Sequence record: PV611058
From: Escherichia phage WPEC3
Reading direction: 5' to 3' (one strand)
DNA length: 64,000 nucleotides
Shown piece after piece: positions 1-64,000 of the stretch. Below the pieces are notes generated by a model. That model saw nothing but the letters and a program-made list of their open reading frames with translations. It ran no database searches and had not been told where the DNA came from. The position numbers and the translations under genes were made by a program. Position 1 is the first letter of the stretch, and each line of letters starts with the position of its first letter.

Positions 1-96
1 AGCTCATTTTATGGATTGGGACCAAACTTTGATCAAAATTCCTCAGCATATGCACAATTCGTCAAAGTGGATTTGCCAGGGGCATTATTAAATTAA
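1..96 (+). CDS. RCC1-like repeat protein paralogue, C-terminal fragment (5' end outside window)
   Basis: Open frame from position 1 to TAA at 94-96; C-terminus ...AQFVKVDLPGALLN resembles the C-terminus of the paralogue ending at 2427 (...AVFTKIDLPK). Confidence 0.5.
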   Translation, partial: SSFYGLGPNFDQNSSAYAQFVKVDLPGALLN

Positions 97-106
97 GGAG
101 AGAAAT

Positions 107-1309
107 ATGTTACCTTTTGCGAGGATGGTTAAGTTCGGGAATATTGCACCAGGGCCAGAACCAATAGAGTTCTCAAATGTTTTACAACAACATTATACAA
201 ACTGTATGTATCTACATAGCCCAACTAATACTTTATATGGTTATGGTAGTAATAACTTTTATCAATTTGGTCTTGGGAATTCAGCAGCAGTTGCGTCATT
301 TACAGTACTTGCAACGCGATGTGCAGCCTTTTGGCTTGGTGTTCAAGGTTCATTGATGATTGATTTGGATAATAAAATATACTACACTGGGTCGGTTGGT
401 GCATTTTCTGATTATGGAGATGCAACACCTGTTAATGGTTATTTGAGAACATGGACTGATGTTACTGCTTCATTTAATAAAATTGGTGTTATGGCTAATA
501 TGATCAAGAGTGTATATATAGGTGAAAGTACTAGAATATTATTAACCGATGGTAGAGTAATTGCGTGTGGAAGAAATACCAATGGTGAATGTGGGTCTGG
601 TAATCAAAATTCCATACCTACACTAACAGTTATGACTAATATGGGTGAAGTTACACATATGGCATGTTCATTACAAGGAACGCACTATATTAAATCAAAT
701 AAAAAGGCATGGTTTTGTGGTAAGGATAACTTCGGTGAAAGTGGTTGTGGTGCTAGTTCTATGATATATTTGAACAAATATGTGATGAGTGATGTCGAAC
801 ATATTAGTACTACATACGATGTTACTTGGTGGTTTACTACTGGTGGGCCTGTATATTATAGCGGGGCTAACAGTACTGGACAAGCTGGTAATGGTACGAC
901 TACATCGGTAAATCAGCTAACACCAATTAGGAACACATCGGTCACGGTTGATGTAAGTAAGTACAGTACTTTTATTTGTCCAAGTAATATGGGAAATGCA
1001 TCAATTGGTGCACCTATGGCACAATACGCACCATATGTTAGAAGTAGTGGTGCTAACGGATACGGTCAAGAAGGTAATGGAACTAATACATTAGTTAGGA
1101 CTTGGAATATTTTTAATCTTAATGCAATAAGTGGTGGTTATGACAATGTTCTTATGGCATCTAAAGATTGGAGCAGAACCATAATAATTACTAAAGATTA
1201 TAAATTATATGCATGTGGTGGCTGGAATGGTAATGGTGGTAGATTGCCTGATGGCACTTATAGTATTACTACACTAACATTAATGCCAACGCAGTTATGG
1301 CAACAATAG
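107..1309 (+). CDS. RCC1-like beta-propeller repeat protein (array paralogue 1)
   Basis: 400-aa ORF; N-terminus MLPFARMVKYGN; repeated G-x-N-x-x-G-Q-x-G-x-G signatures (YGYGSNNFYQFGLGN, YSGANSTGQAGNG, SSGANGYGQEGNG) typical of RCC1 repeats; RBS aaggag 8 nt upstream. Confidence 0.8.
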   Translation: MLPFARMVKFGNIAPGPEPIEFSNVLQQHYTNCMYLHSPTNTLYGYGSNNFYQFGLGNSAAVASFTVLATRCAAFWLGVQGSLMIDLDNKIYYTGSVGAFSDYGDATPVNGYLRTWTDVTASFNKIGVMANMIKSVYIGESTRILLTDGRVIACGRNTNGECGSGNQNSIPTLTVMTNMGEVTHMACSLQGTHYIKSNKKAWFCGKDNFGESGCGASSMIYLNKYVMSDVEHISTTYDVTWWFTTGGPVYYSGANSTGQAGNGTTTSVNQLTPIRNTSVTVDVSKYSTFICPSNMGNASIGAPMAQYAPYVRSSGANGYGQEGNGTNTLVRTWNIFNLNAISGGYDNVLMASKDWSRTIIITKDYKLYACGGWNGNGGRLPDGTYSITTLTLMPTQLWQQ

Positions 1310-1317
1310 GAGGAATT

Positions 1318-2427
1318 ATGTTACCTTTTGTAAGACTATTTGATTATGGGAATATTACCTCTGGTCCTAAAAATATAATTAAAGTTGGTGCTTCTACTCA
1401 AGGTCAATTCGTATTGACTGATTCACATGAATTGTATTACATAGGCAGAAATCAAGGTGGTGAATCTGGAAATGGTAATAAAAACACGGTATCTTCTTGG
1501 ACATTAGTAAGTGCAGATGTTTCTAATTTTTTCACTGGAGGACGAACACTTGTTATTATTAAAAATGACAATACGATATGGACATCAGGTGAAACATATT
1601 GGTTCACATCATCAACAACAACTTCTTACAGTACTACATTAGTTGATAGAACGGAGTGGTTTACAAATACAATTCCTGTGAATCAAATTGCTAATATTGT
1701 ATGCAATGGTGGTGTAATATTTGTACTCAGTTCAAGTTCAGTACTCTATGGTGCTGGAGCTAATGGATACCGTGGTGTATTGGGGATTGGTTCTTCATCA
1801 ATATATACATTAACACTATGTGCTTCTAATGTGCGTAAAGTTATGTCTACTCCTAATGATAGTATGTATATTAGCATAGATAATAAGTTATATAGTTCAG
1901 GGTGGAATGACCGTGGATTACATGGCACAGGGAACAGAACACAAGTTAACATTTGGGGACTGCGTAGTTCTGGTGTAATAGATGCAGCTATTGGTGGACA
2001 TACACTCAATTACTATAATGGTACATCATATTTCACATGTGGTACAACTCCAAACTTTCTTAGTTCAGATTCAACTACATTCAAAGCAGTTCCTGTAAGT
2101 ACTTTACCTAATAATTCACCTTTGTTTATGACAAATTCAGAGGCAACAAGCACGGCTACGCAAATTATATTAACTAGTGCATATCAGAAAGGTATTGGGG
2201 GAAACCGTGGTTTGGGATTAAACAATTCTCAAACGGGTGCTATCTATAGTGCTGCTAATTTACAATTACCTGTAGAAGTTAGTGAGATTAGTGATGTTGC
2301 TTTTAGTGACGGATTAACATCATTATTAACCAAAGACGGGAATGTATATAGTACTGGATCGTATTACGCCATTCCAGGTGCAAGTGCAGATGTTGCAGTC
2401 TTTACTAAAATTGATTTACCAAAATAA
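1318..2427 (+). CDS. RCC1-like beta-propeller repeat protein (array paralogue 2)
   Basis: Start moved to the conserved MLPFVRLFDYGN ATG at 1318 (RBS aggagg 1307-1312); the track ORF from 1297 is an in-frame upstream extension. Motifs GRNQGGESGNGNK, GANGYRGVLGIG. Confidence 0.75.
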   Translation: MLPFVRLFDYGNITSGPKNIIKVGASTQGQFVLTDSHELYYIGRNQGGESGNGNKNTVSSWTLVSADVSNFFTGGRTLVIIKNDNTIWTSGETYWFTSSTTTSYSTTLVDRTEWFTNTIPVNQIANIVCNGGVIFVLSSSSVLYGAGANGYRGVLGIGSSSIYTLTLCASNVRKVMSTPNDSMYISIDNKLYSSGWNDRGLHGTGNRTQVNIWGLRSSGVIDAAIGGHTLNYYNGTSYFTCGTTPNFLSSDSTTFKAVPVSTLPNNSPLFMTNSEATSTATQIILTSAYQKGIGGNRGLGLNNSQTGAIYSAANLQLPVEVSEISDVAFSDGLTSLLTKDGNVYSTGSYYAIPGASADVAVFTKIDLPK

Positions 2428-2497
2428 CATAATGCCAGTACTCAGTACTGGCTTTTCTTTTTGGTTAAATATAGTATAATGAATAAAGGAGGGAATT
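2428..2497 (+). promoter_or_regulatory. Conserved terminator/leader cassette: hairpin gccagtactcagtactggc (2444-2462) + T-run, TATAAT (2475-2480), RBS aaggagg
   Basis: Perfect 8-bp stem plus T-tract = intrinsic terminator; the TATAAT-containing leader is near-identical upstream of 8 array genes. TATAAT lies only ~17 nt from the ATG, so promoter class (sigma70-like, middle or late) is unresolved. Confidence 0.6.
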
Positions 2498-62144: not shown

Positions 62145-62191
62145 ATGTTCTCCTTAGTAAGTCATAGTATTATATCAGAGTTTCATTGCAC

Positions 62192-62584
62192 TTACCAGCA
62201 TGTTTTCATAACTTCTGTGATGTAAATCATTTTATCTTTTAGTTCATAAGGGATGCAAATTTCACCTGGGCTTAACGTTGTGTTCTTTTGAAACTCATCC
62301 TCTTCGGAATCAGCCAGGTAAAATGGGTGCGTCACAAAGTTATCATCAACTGGACGATTATGTGGTTTCATTAATGCATCATGATTGACAAAATAATAAG
62401 CATCAATATCAGGACGGAAATACAAACAATCAACCTTAATGCACGGGTGTAACCATAAGGACAAAGAATATGTTATTTGGTTACCAATTTGTCTTGGACC
62501 AGATGCAATTGTATTGATGTTATTTTTATCTTGTACCATTTCATAAATGAAATCTATCATTTCACGTAGTTCAGATTCAGTCAT
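62192..62584 (-). CDS. Hypothetical protein
   Basis: 130 aa; contains SEEDEFQKNTTL, similar to the motif in 56594-56971. Confidence 0.45.
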   Translation of the reverse strand: MTESELREMIDFIYEMVQDKNNINTIASGPRQIGNQITYSLSLWLHPCIKVDCLYFRPDIDAYYFVNHDALMKPHNRPVDDNFVTHPFYLADSEEDEFQKNTTLSPGEICIPYELKDKMIYITEVMKTCW

Positions 62585-63112
62585 TTTATTTCCTTAAAAA
62601 AAATACCCAGTACTAGACTGGGTATAAAGTAATGTTCAATCAGATTTCTTTTCGTAATCTGCAAAAACAGTCAGGATTGTTGCACACAGTGAATCAACTG
62701 CTGCTGCACGTTTTTCATCAAGGGATTTCGCTAGTTCTTGAATCTCTTGAAGTTTTACTACTAAGTCAATTTTTTGATTACTCATTACTTCTCCTATTGA
62801 ATGTATTTTAGATGTTAATTTTGATACCAGATAGATCCAGTACTTTACGTAAAGGAGGTTCTGGTTCAGGCTGAACAACCTCTTCAGGCTCTTGTGCTGG
62901 AATCTTTGTGTTAATATTTAGACCATCTTGAAGAATTTCAGGGATAATTCCATGCTGCACATCATTGTACATAGACACAACCGTTTCTGCACAAGATAAC
63001 ATTTCACGAACTTTAAACTGATATCCTTGTGGTAAATCTTTGATGATTTCCATAACATCTAATAACTTCGTTTGTACATCAATAAGAATACTGTTTGATT
63101 TATCTGCGTCCA

Positions 63113-63619
63113 TTAATCCAACTCCACTACGTTATTTTTTTTCTTTGTATTTACTACAGTGGGTGAATCATTTTTTGTCACATCACCTCGTAGTTTCTTT
63201 TCTAGTGCGATGATACGCTTTAATGTCTTAATTGACGGTCGTTTCTTTGTTAGCTCGGCTTTTGCTTCAGTATAATACTTTCGGATATATCCATATGCAT
63301 AATACTTAGAACCAATAAAAATTTCAGCAACGGCTTGCTGGTAACTCATTTCGTACCCATTAATGTCCACGGGTGATGCATAAAATACAATATTTGTATT
63401 ACACGAAGAAATTTTAGCAACCAGTAAGTTAGCTTCAAGTTTATTCAAAATCAATGTAGTGGTTTCTTCTGCCTCGTCACTGTACTGCATAGCTGACATT
63501 AGAAGTTGAAAGGACTTGAAGTAATTACTACCACTGATTACCGTATTGAAGATTAATCCCAATGTAATCAGTACTAGTGTACCAAGACATATAAACAAAA
63601 ACCAATATTCAACACTCAT
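63113..63619 (-). CDS. Hypothetical membrane-anchored protein
   Basis: 168 aa; N-terminal TM helix FLFICLGTLVLITLGLIF. Confidence 0.45.
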   Translation of the reverse strand: MSVEYWFLFICLGTLVLITLGLIFNTVISGSNYFKSFQLLMSAMQYSDEAEETTTLILNKLEANLLVAKISSCNTNIVFYASPVDINGYEMSYQQAVAEIFIGSKYYAYGYIRKYYTEAKAELTKKRPSIKTLKRIIALEKKLRGDVTKNDSPTVVNTKKKNNVVELD

Positions 63620-64000
63620 TAATATATCCTCAGTTTGTATTTTATTAAAAAAGCCCCATCAACATTGATGAGGCGGGAAATCAATTACTTACGGTTTGCT
63701 TTACGCAGTTCAGAAAGTTCTTCTTGTAGACTTTTCTTCCATGCAATTAGATGAGCAAAACGGATTGGCCTTGCACCAGTACCGTGGAATACTGCGAGAG
63801 CTTCTTCAGCTTGATGAATCTGGAACTGAATGTAGTTCACAGTGCGGTCGAAGTCGGTGATATCTAGTACTTGTGCGTTAGTTTCTTTAGCCATTTTTAA
63901 TACCCTTTTATTTCTTTTTTATGAAAAACCCTCATCATTGAGGAATGGTTTGCATTTTTACATCTGCCGATAATATACATTATATCATGCTTTTCAGCGT

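Follow-up and report, generated by a model that had tools for sequence, protein, structure and literature searches.

The palindrome AGTACT in Escherichia phage WPEC3 and related jumbo phages: a candidate recognition word maintained at high density across the genome

Phages avoid short palindromes because these are restriction sites, and the 64,000-nucleotide stretch of Escherichia phage WPEC3 analysed here (sequence record PV611058; hereafter the window) raises the question of why AGTACT, the word recognised by the restriction enzymes ScaI and Eco255I (AGT^ACT), is instead strongly enriched in it. A preliminary description of the window had placed this hexamer specifically in regulatory DNA. 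Our analysis shows that it is spread over the whole genome and lies mostly within genes, and the reading that we prefer, to which we assign a probability of roughly 0.45, is that AGTACT belongs with the "highly iterated palindromes" and serves as a recognition word, genome-wide and not regulatory, for a clade-specific factor that acts on DNA, its density being under selection. By megablast the window is 99.3% identical to phage EC.P1 and ~85% identical to PBECO4, and it belongs to an Asteriusvirus (PBECO4/121Q group) jumbo phage; the deposited annotation of the matching region reads "hypothetical protein" throughout.

AGTACT occurs 181 times in the window (2.8 per kb), against 20.5 +/- 4.6 in dinucleotide-preserving shuffles with the coding and non-coding compartments taken together; thus the preliminary description was right that a restriction-type site is enriched, ~9-fold, and not avoided. 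The observed/expected ratio amounts to 8.9 under a first-order Markov model (Markov-1) and to 3.3 when synonymous codons are shuffled. AGTACT ranks first among the hexamers of the window by z-score and is the sole strongly over-represented palindromic hexamer, the runner-up showing a ratio of just 1.84; furthermore, CAGTACTG is present in 35 copies, with 1.06 expected. In the logo of the 181 sites, the information in the flanks is limited to position -1 (C in 51%) and position +6 (G in 41%), corresponding to a weak, dyad-symmetric preference for C-AGTACT-G. As the flanks are otherwise uninformative and the site contexts unique, derivation of the copies from a longer repeat or a mobile element was ruled out. 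The one-mismatch neighbours occur at 0.5-2.5 times expectation, with the highest values at the outer two positions, and the specificity spans all six positions, in the manner of a restriction enzyme. A compositional or codon artefact was likewise ruled out, as the 3-9-fold excess survives dinucleotide, Markov (orders 1-2), synonymous-codon and codon-order controls, in all frames.

The gene model of the window comprises 132 genes, with a plus-strand block at 107-15580 and the remainder almost wholly on the minus strand, and AGTACT is found roughly once per gene (181 sites, 132 genes). The preliminary description had reported the word from nearly every intergenic element and regarded it as confined to regulatory DNA. 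Neither statement held: 147 of the 181 sites (81%) are coding, 32 are non-coding and 2 lie at gene boundaries, and only 25 of the 61 intergenic regions of at least 20 nucleotides contain AGTACT. It had also proposed a comparison of observed and expected counts in coding and intergenic sequence; the ratio proved far from 1 and the density is indeed doubled in non-coding DNA (5.26 per kb, compared to 2.56 per kb in coding DNA), but the coding sequence is enriched as well. In particular, the 147 coding sites compare with 17.8 expected under Markov-1, 44.7 +/- 5.7 under a within-gene synonymous-codon shuffle and 27.4 under a codon-order shuffle; in non-coding DNA, boundary sites counted in, 34 copies are found where 2.2 are expected. 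Given the encoded peptides and the codon usage, the word exceeds expectation in the AGT/ACT frame (72 versus 22.3), in the xxA/GTA/CTx frame (47 versus 9.1) and in the xAG/TAC/Txx frame (26-28 sites; 26 versus 5.0), so that synonymous codon choice yields AGTACT at 3-5 times the frequency predicted from codon usage. The window also has a surplus of Ser-Thr dipeptides (148 versus 95). It follows, from the excess in all three frames and from this surplus, that the pressure acts on the nucleotide sequence and not on the proteins. Having misplaced the signal, the preliminary description therefore misjudged what the signal is.

The excess is not limited to the window. In phage TH47 (MT446416; 350 kb compiled, 97% identical to the window and unannotated), AGTACT is again the top hexamer, with 909 copies against 103 expected and a density of ~2-2.5 per kb nearly throughout, except for a trough at 70-88 kb and a peak of 6-7.5 per kb at 90-110 kb; the genes in this peak are very small, each with its own promoter, and the density reaches 4.7 per kb in coding and 10.4 per kb in non-coding sequence. 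For the related phage fEgEco12, direct terminal repeats of 20,993 bp have been determined experimentally (PMC13070987), and by coordinate mapping to that genome, approximate because of indels, the TH47 peak falls in or beside the terminal repeat; the annotated terminal repeat of phage CBB contains 143 copies of AGTACT in 22.5 kb. AGTACT is also the top hexamer in samples of RaK2 (92 versus 8.8 expected), GAP32 (96 versus 11.2), CBB (67 versus 7.8) and Serratia phage BF (66 versus 6.9), so that the excess, at 2.3-2.8 per kb, is common to four genera infecting Enterobacterales (Asteriusvirus, Alcyoneusvirus, Mimasvirus and Eneladusvirus) with little nucleotide similarity, and it covers early, replication and structural regions. 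No excess was found in samples of Atu_ph07 (2 versus 3.2) and T4 (4 versus 5.8), and in the 100-130 kb region of the Pseudomonas relative PA5oct AGTACT is depleted (1 versus 8.8); the most enriched palindrome of that region is CTGCAG (14 versus 3). Escherichia coli K-12 has 3 copies in 50 kb (0.06 per kb), a density ~45-fold below that of the phage in this one small sample. In the openly searchable literature, subscription-only papers such as the one on the GAP32 genome aside, no report links AGTACT to these phages, and the papers on RaK2, CBB, fEgEco12 and Sharanji and those comparing jumbo phages do not mention it.

The sites are conserved above their background. In an alignment of 48.7 kb with a relative (87% identity), AGTACT is intact at 121 of 151 sites (80%), compared to 55% of all hexamers, 56% of hexamers of the same composition and 60% of hexamers 7-18 nucleotides away, and the per-base identity is 0.934 within the motif and 0.887 in the flanks. 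Between CBB and BF, which belong to different genera (79% identity), the word persists at 32 of 66 sites (48.5%), compared to 24-28% for the controls. On the strength of the ~9-fold excess and of this conservation, we agree with the preliminary description that the enrichment implies a functional word. Sites are also gained and lost: 30 are found only in the window and 25 only in the 87% relative, their counterparts being spread over many variants with no dominant mutational route and no excess of C-to-T products, and the C is the best-conserved position of the motif. We estimate that losses occur at roughly 0.5 times and gains at roughly 2.5 times the neutral expectation, figures which, at the level of sequence comparison, suggest weak per-site selection of the type maintaining density-type signals.

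A neutral process could be envisaged instead, in which methylation-linked very-short-patch or mismatch repair converts near-cognates to AGTACT in heteroduplex DNA without any function, as in the model of Elhai for HIP1 (GCGATCGC), an iterated palindrome of cyanobacteria. Recombination is intense in these phages and heteroduplex DNA plentiful; the clade encodes two orphan methyltransferases (one of the PF05869 Dam family, the other a cytosine-5 enzyme), the turnover of sites is high, and the outer-position variants are the most elevated (~2-2.5 times), as Elhai observed for HIP1 (PMC4390886). We nevertheless consider such a drive unlikely, since the sites are conserved above the local background at two divergence depths, an observation from which Xu et al. 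argued for selection on HIP1 likewise (PMC5861425), gains and losses follow no dominant route, AGTATT and AATACT are not depleted, and two genomic islands, described below, are free of the word in two lineages; moreover, no Vsr-like gene turned up, no search having been aimed at one.

The occurrence of AGTACT in terminators and promoters is real but secondary, as it is limited to a minority of these elements (Table 1). About 14 of the 181 sites sit in intrinsic-terminator stems, mostly in a cassette repeated between genes for RCC1-repeat paralogs at 2.4-15.6 kb, and six AGTACT hairpins, each with a U-run behind it, have folding energies from -11.9 to -15.4 kcal/mol; the one between convergent genes is likely a bidirectional terminator. 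The preliminary description had both arms of the plus-strand terminators built of the word in the pattern gccAGTACTnAGTACTggc: such stems exist, but the pattern is exact only once (2434-2452), three further terminators being two-armed with other flanks and six one-armed. Its longer palindromes, represented by TTCAGTACTGAA, are also real, though located 3-7 nucleotides from where it had put them. About nine sites lie in promoter spacers of the window, and the class of promoters that it had noticed, with AGTACT next to the -10 box, does exist, with the form TTGAC(A/T)-N9-(C/T)AGTACTG-N1-2-ATAAT, but accounts for just 5 of 28 sigma70-like candidates. In TH47, AGTACT stands 1-2 nucleotides upstream of the -10 box in 16 of 98 stringent promoters, with ~0.5 expected by chance. 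Some AGTACT promoters have a second copy 22 bp upstream, so that the -35 box is flanked on both sides. In this sub-class, the final T of the word and the following G provide the TG of an extended -10 element (with the -35 box at 16-18 nucleotides), and ~2% of the genomic sites are covered by it.

These occurrences, together with the doubled non-coding density in the window and the corresponding values in the early region of the terminal repeat (10.4 versus 4.7 per kb), speak for the view of the preliminary description that AGTACT is first of all a regulatory word, i.e., a promoter or terminator operator or a structural element, with the intragenic copies being incidental or acting as a sink. 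We regard this view as very unlikely, because the 81% of sites that are intragenic are 8 times enriched and conserved, 23 of the 28 promoter candidates and 36 of the 61 intergenic regions lack the word, the structural-gene regions of other genera are equally dense, and one promoter of this class survives with AGTATT. Doubled density in terminator stems and promoter spacers can be explained by their tolerance of AGTACT, since stems are already palindromic and the T of the word plus a G gives the TG of the extended -10 element; a two-fold density in non-coding DNA is what relaxed constraint would produce.

Table 1. Terminators, promoters and palindromes of the window containing AGTACT or a decayed copy of it
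Feature	Position	Strand	Details
Intrinsic terminator GCCAGTACT-C-AGTACTGGC + T-run, 3' of RCC1-repeat paralog gene	2434..2452	+	-12.4 kcal/mol, z -3.7
Terminator GCCAGTACT-CA-AGTACTGGT + T-run	4927..4946	+	-14.2 kcal/mol, z -5.1
Terminator GTCAGTACT-CA-AGTACTGAC + T-run	6154..6173	+	-15.1 kcal/mol, z -5.3
Terminator with a single intact arm, GCCAGTACT-AT-GTACTGGC	13702..13720	+	-15.1 kcal/mol, z -6.5
Hairpin TCCAGTACT-ATTAT-AGTACTGGA between convergent genes	15587..15609		-15.4 kcal/mol, z -6.7
Other one-armed terminators	~3675-3693, 7421-7439, 9884-9902, 12495-12513	+	
One-armed terminator	~62601-62622	-	
Promoter region TTGAC-AGTACT-N10-AGTACT-ATAACT	18086..18112	-	two AGTACT 16 nt apart
Sigma70-type promoter TTGACA-N9-TCAGTACTG-TATAAT	23798..23825	-	AGTACT 23805-23810
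Promoter, same class as 23798..23825	34664..34691	-	AGTACT 34671-34676
Promoter, same class as 23798..23825	38626..38653	-	AGTACT 38633-38638
Promoter TTGACT-N..-TTCAGTACTG-A-TATAAT	57334..57362	-	canonical TGn extended -10; AGTACT 57342-57347
Promoter, AGTACT class	57756..57783	-	AGTACT 57763-57768
Decayed copy of AGTACT-class promoter	~55682-55710		word reads AGTATT
12-nt palindrome TTCAGTACTGAA	52019..52030, 54155-54166, 59421-59432		

Outside the window, the distribution of the word shows a distinctive feature. Two islands of TH47, island 1 (71.8-80.2 kb) and island 2 (82.7-87.55 kb), contain zero AGTACT, and the 2.5-kb segment between them contains 17. An 85% relative shows this arrangement with sharp edges too, the homologous stretches being found in OR844650 at 9,900-17,000 and 20,000-24,000. 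The island region was found in 35 of 35 Asteriusvirus records; it lies beside the terminal repeat and its divergence is above the genome average. A recent foreign insertion was ruled out, given its presence in all 35 records and the absence of sites in the 85% relative. The proteins of the region have no Pfam families, a tandem-repeat search retrieved just two small unrelated arrays, and the first 50 kb of CBB contain no AGTACT-free islands. Island 1 carries 46 copies, against 3.8 expected (12 times), of the one-letter variant that reads TGTACT on the plus strand, i.e., AGTACA on the sense strand of the minus-strand genes, and a single copy in the reverse orientation; in the relative the two orientations stand at 41:0. 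Each copy has a sequence context of its own, all three frames are used (16/13/7), and the variant sites are conserved (73% versus 54-58%) and never read AGTACT in the relative. The polar excess climbs across ~20 kb before island 1. In island 2 the polarity is reversed (0:9, and 1:8 in the relative), though the genes are on the same strand; the flip is to be taken as suggestive, because the copies share a weak context in paralogous mini-genes. Elsewhere the variant is only mildly elevated, to an equal degree in both orientations and whichever the gene orientation, the sense bias being confined to TH47 50-88 kb, and over the bulk of the genome AGTACA/TGTACT do not exceed the C/G outer variants in enrichment (~2 times).

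It is possible to hypothesize from this zone a polar DNA-tracking reader, such as a strand-specific primase, a Chi-recognising helicase-nuclease or a translocase or packaging motor of the type that reads KOPS (FtsK-orienting polar sequences). For such an enzyme the palindrome would be an economical two-way signal where replication is recombinational and without a fixed fork direction, and the one-orientation variant would be used beside the terminal repeat. The 46:1 and 41:0 ratios in an island devoid of AGTACT, in unique contexts and three frames, fit this hypothesis, as do the conservation of the variant sites without interconversion with AGTACT, the rise of the polar excess over ~20 kb toward island 1, the opposite polarity of island 2 on same-strand genes and the location of the top density in the terminal repeat in two genera. 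A T4-type primase acting on the template 5'-AGTAC(A/T)-3', with a cryptic 3' base, would, speculatively, give the same pentamer primer from either word. We hold a polar reader to be rather unlikely, however. The level of AGTACA/TGTACT with the C/G outer variants in the bulk genome implies that the bulk reader wants exactly AGTACT; the hypothesis does not require a strict exclusion of the palindrome from the islands; the nine copies of island 2 partly represent one position in paralogous mini-genes; CBB lacks islands in its first 50 kb; and the known polar signals, Chi and KOPS, are non-palindromic octamers.

The same zone bears on a role at the RNA level, whereby AGUACU would be a site for an endoribonuclease or an RNA-binding protein, or would mediate self-complementary RNA-RNA pairing, the palindromy of the DNA being incidental. 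A palindrome would mask any strand preference, the island 1 variant lies nearly always on the sense strand and in all frames, there is ~1 site per gene (181/132), and AGTACT makes the stems of terminator hairpins. Such a role appears quite unlikely when it is considered that incidental palindromy has a prior of 64/4096 hexamers, that the flanks are dyad-symmetric, that the near-cognates of the bulk genome have no sense bias in either gene orientation, that fixed positions are occupied in the non-transcribed spacers of promoters (16/98 versus ~0.5 expected), and that the polarity of island 2 is opposite on same-strand genes.

Returning to the reading of AGTACT as a density-selected recognition word, the mechanism that we propose is the following. 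AGTACT would be kept at ~1 copy per 350-430 bp across the genomes of Rak2-like Enterobacterales jumbo phages by weak per-site selection on density, and a clade-encoded, sequence-specific factor would recognise it on duplex phage DNA. Candidates for this factor are an orphan methyltransferase, a nuclease-type enzyme or a dimeric DNA-binding protein, and it would mark or engage the phage DNA every few hundred base pairs while nearly ignoring host DNA; the use of the word in promoters and terminators would be opportunistic and not its primary purpose. The symmetric flanks, and the lack of a sense-strand bias among near-cognates in the bulk genome, favour this mechanism. Pairs of AGTACT 10-25 bp apart are in surplus (63 versus 34 expected), with broad spacing peaks at 11-13 and 20-24 bp, the majority not being hairpins, and these peaks and the fixed promoter positions are compatible with protein binding.

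Several observations weigh on the other side. A symmetric duplex reader gives no reason to expect the two conserved AGTACT-free islands, one of them with AGTACA at 46:1; an enzyme that reads a single strand, or another reader besides the first, might account for the zone, and it is mainly because of this zone that our confidence stays below even odds. Apart from the surplus of close pairs, no regular spacing was seen, the distribution of sites being near-Poisson (coefficient of variation 1.29), and sequence alone does not fully separate selection from a biased-repair drive. Furthermore, no reader protein could be pinned down among the methyltransferases of the clade and their neighbour genes, and the neighbours of both methyltransferase genes have no Pfam matches. 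The cytosine-5 enzyme (286 amino acids, encoded just past the end of the window) is 92-93% identical within Asteriusvirus, while CBB and GAP32 reach ~75% and RaK2-like Klebsiella phages 63%. Its best solved relatives are the catalytic domains of DNMT3, i.e., of CpG type, and m5CpG (5-methylcytosine in CpG) has been reported in RaK2 (PMC3622015); the likeness to DNMT3 would suit this modification better than AGTACT. Its nearest homologues outside the clade (45-51% identity) are found in phages without enrichment (muut, 2 versus 5.6; ICP1, 2 versus 7.9), and the C of the motif is not hypermutable. With the C best conserved, no C-to-T surplus, a DNMT3-like enzyme and unenriched muut and ICP1, cytosine-5 methylation of AGTACT was left without support.

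The adenine enzyme of the PF05869 "Dam" family is found at 42% identity in BF. GATC is scarce in the window (101 versus 183 expected), and is also below expectation in GAP32 (69 versus 109), CBB (52 versus 80) and, strongly, T4 (32 versus 108), while it is over-represented in muut (146 versus 70). A blanket base modification is unlikely, because ten enzymes, with the CpG-sensitive SmaI, ClaI and NruI among them but not ScaI, gave the predicted digestion of fEgEco12 DNA (PMC13070987). In TH47 the cytosine-5 gene (175,438-177,327, minus strand) is split at the catalytic motif (GGFP/CQSWSVAG) by an intein of ~343 amino acids with LAGLIDADG motifs; the gene is uninterrupted (286 amino acids) in fEgEco12, 121Q and most relatives, and appears to be split also in JNE01, ph0011 and UE-S1. 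A likeness of AGTACT to the half-sites of LexA and TrpR was noted, the required partner half-sites being absent from the promoters inspected.

Among known systems, the closest analogue of AGTACT is HIP1, with whose descriptive features it agrees except for fold-enrichment. HIP1 is hyper-abundant, lies in and between open reading frames and is conserved above background without a peptide, RNA or gene-regulatory function, on which grounds selection has been argued (Xu, Lawrence and Durand 2018, PMC5861425), and it co-occurs with orphan methyltransferases, a methylation-dependent repair drive having been proposed by Elhai (PMC4390886). Phages are absent from both papers (PMC5861425, PMC4390886). 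Both words are short exact palindromes, distributed genome-wide at ~1 per gene, in all frames, in and between genes; both are conserved above background and clade-specific, with orphan methyltransferases in the same genomes and with outer-position near-misses being the commonest. However, AGTACT is an AT-rich hexamer without GATC or CpG and HIP1 a GC-rich octamer, and the enrichment is 8-10-fold (five genomes) for the former and 15-300-fold for the latter, i.e., below the ~15-fold working threshold of Xu et al. The chance expectation is much higher for a hexamer than for an octamer, and therefore the absolute density of AGTACT (2.3-2.8 per kb) tops that of most HIP1 genomes. Furthermore, AGTACT occurs in a virus and HIP1 in a cellular chromosome, no methyltransferase could be tied to AGTACT, and islands with a strand-specific variant are not described for HIP1.

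The uptake signal sequences (USS) of Haemophilus and the DNA uptake sequences (DUS) of Neisseria are over-represented "self" words, mostly intragenic, often arranged as inverted-pair terminators and subject to weak per-site forces. AGTACT resembles them in its terminator pairs and in the ~45-fold contrast between phage and host; different from it, they are 9-12 nucleotides long, non-palindromic and dependent on the uptake machinery of competent bacteria, and we know of no analogous uptake or selection step for these phages. Chi, KOPS and the architecture-imparting sequences (AIMS) are, like AGTACT, density-type, weakly selected words, theirs being read by DNA-tracking enzymes, and the TGTACT/AGTACA zone by the terminal repeat, with its possible polarity switch, resembles the skew of these signals around ori and dif. 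Nevertheless, such signals are non-palindromic and skewed across the replichore, whereas the bulk of AGTACT is palindromic with unskewed near-cognates; the behaviour of a polar signal is only local (TGTACT/AGTACA in TH47 50-88 kb, 46:1 and then 0:9, the latter confounded by paralogs), and E. coli Chi itself is not notably used, with 6 and 17 copies on the two strands of 350 kb. The site of ScaI-type enzymes is like the phage word in that all six positions are needed, and unlike it in that restriction sites are normally avoided by phages and this one is 9-fold enriched; no ScaI-like nuclease or methylase was identified, and the literature searched offered neither a ScaI digest nor a methylome for these phages.

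The binding site of the host nucleoid-occlusion protein SlmA, GTGAGTACTCAC, has AGTACT at its centre, is dispersed over the chromosome and is bound by a dimeric TetR-family protein (PMC3020112), and the phage genome might thus be imagined as a giant array of SlmA sites that blocks division by titration or activation of the protein. The idea is attractive because cells infected by phage Sharanji filament, with DNA spread through the cell (PMC11895373), and the enriched clade infects only Enterobacterales. The specificity is nonetheless opposite to that of the phage word, as SlmA requires G, T and a purine in the first three positions and tolerates changes best at the centre (PMC3020112), whereas in the phage the centre is invariant and the outer flanks are unconstrained, with G in 17% of sites at -3, T in 37% at -2, and C in 46% and G in 8% at -1. 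Flanks match below chance, sites with at most two flank mismatches numbering 6 against 21.6 expected, and T4, which has the same host, shows no excess. These flank statistics, set against the published specificity, rule out SlmA sites, and we attach next to no likelihood to this explanation.

The ~9-fold palindrome excess, probably maintained by selection in four genera of 350-kb phages, is the reverse of the usual avoidance by phages. It influences which codons are chosen in hundreds of genes, and even which amino acids these encode, and it implies a sequence-specific activity acting on the entire phage genome. A wider interpretation, which we consider possible though doubtful, is that of a virus-encoded "self-recognition word" system, in which a clade-specific enzyme would read ~900 sites per genome to distinguish or process phage versus host DNA (in priming, recombination-dependent replication, nuclease attenuation or packaging), and the polar switching zone would be where replication starts or ends, or where packaging is directed. 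If so, it would represent the first phage equivalent of the Chi, USS or HIP signals and a convenient system in which to study what highly iterated palindromes do. In a lytic phage with a 60-minute cycle, few candidate genes and natural AGTACT-free controls, the three-decade question posed by HIP1 would become approachable by experiment. The density of ~2.5 AGTACT per kb at 32-36% G+C may also serve as a signature for spotting the clade in metagenomes. For phages of this group in therapy development, restriction of the ScaI type in the host (Eco255I is the E. coli isoschizomer of ScaI) would meet ~900 targets per genome unless the sites were protected.

The cassettes with AGTACT stems belong to an array of about eleven tandem paralogous genes (107-15580, plus strand), coding for RCC1-repeat proteins of roughly 370-450 amino acids, each gene being followed by the AGTACT-stem terminator, a promoter TTAAATATAGTATAAT and AAGGAGG; a twelfth copy-like gene is located at 46788-47945 (plus strand). 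On the minus strand, a fusion of terminator and promoter recurs, examples being found at 20867-20928, 21596-21649, 26220-26285, 26899-26969, 28458-28562, 29120-29328, 32854-32908 and 40990-41047. It features the hairpin GGGTTGACTTCGGTCAACCC, with a TTGAC -35 box inside the stem, a T-run and then GCTATAAT; it thus seems to terminate one transcript and to initiate the following one, and the promoters of this class are without AGTACT. A sigma70-family protein of 321 amino acids, with Pfam Sigma70 regions 2 and 3, is encoded at 41048-42013 (minus strand), and its gene adjoins a 462-nucleotide non-coding stretch (40586-41047) without an Rfam match.

With regard to the codons that make up the word, AGT is the commonest Ser codon of the window (465 of 1369), partly because of the AGT/ACT words. 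Six phage tRNA genes are clustered at 53520-58477 (minus strand), namely, Thr(tgt), Asn(gtt), Met(cat), Ser(act), Ser(gct) and Ser(tga), and the Rfam scan of the window found these and nothing else; two of them decode AGY serine codons, the ACT anticodon being unusual, and the phage tRNAs may offset the translational cost of AGTACT. Directly downstream of tRNA-Ser(tga), at ~58,290-58,385 (minus strand), a tRNA-like sequence called by neither ARAGORN nor Rfam could be read by eye; its acceptor stem has 7 bp, its T-arm is GGTTCGAGTCC and its CCA is encoded, the anticodon in the loop may be UCU, and it contains a long extra insert.

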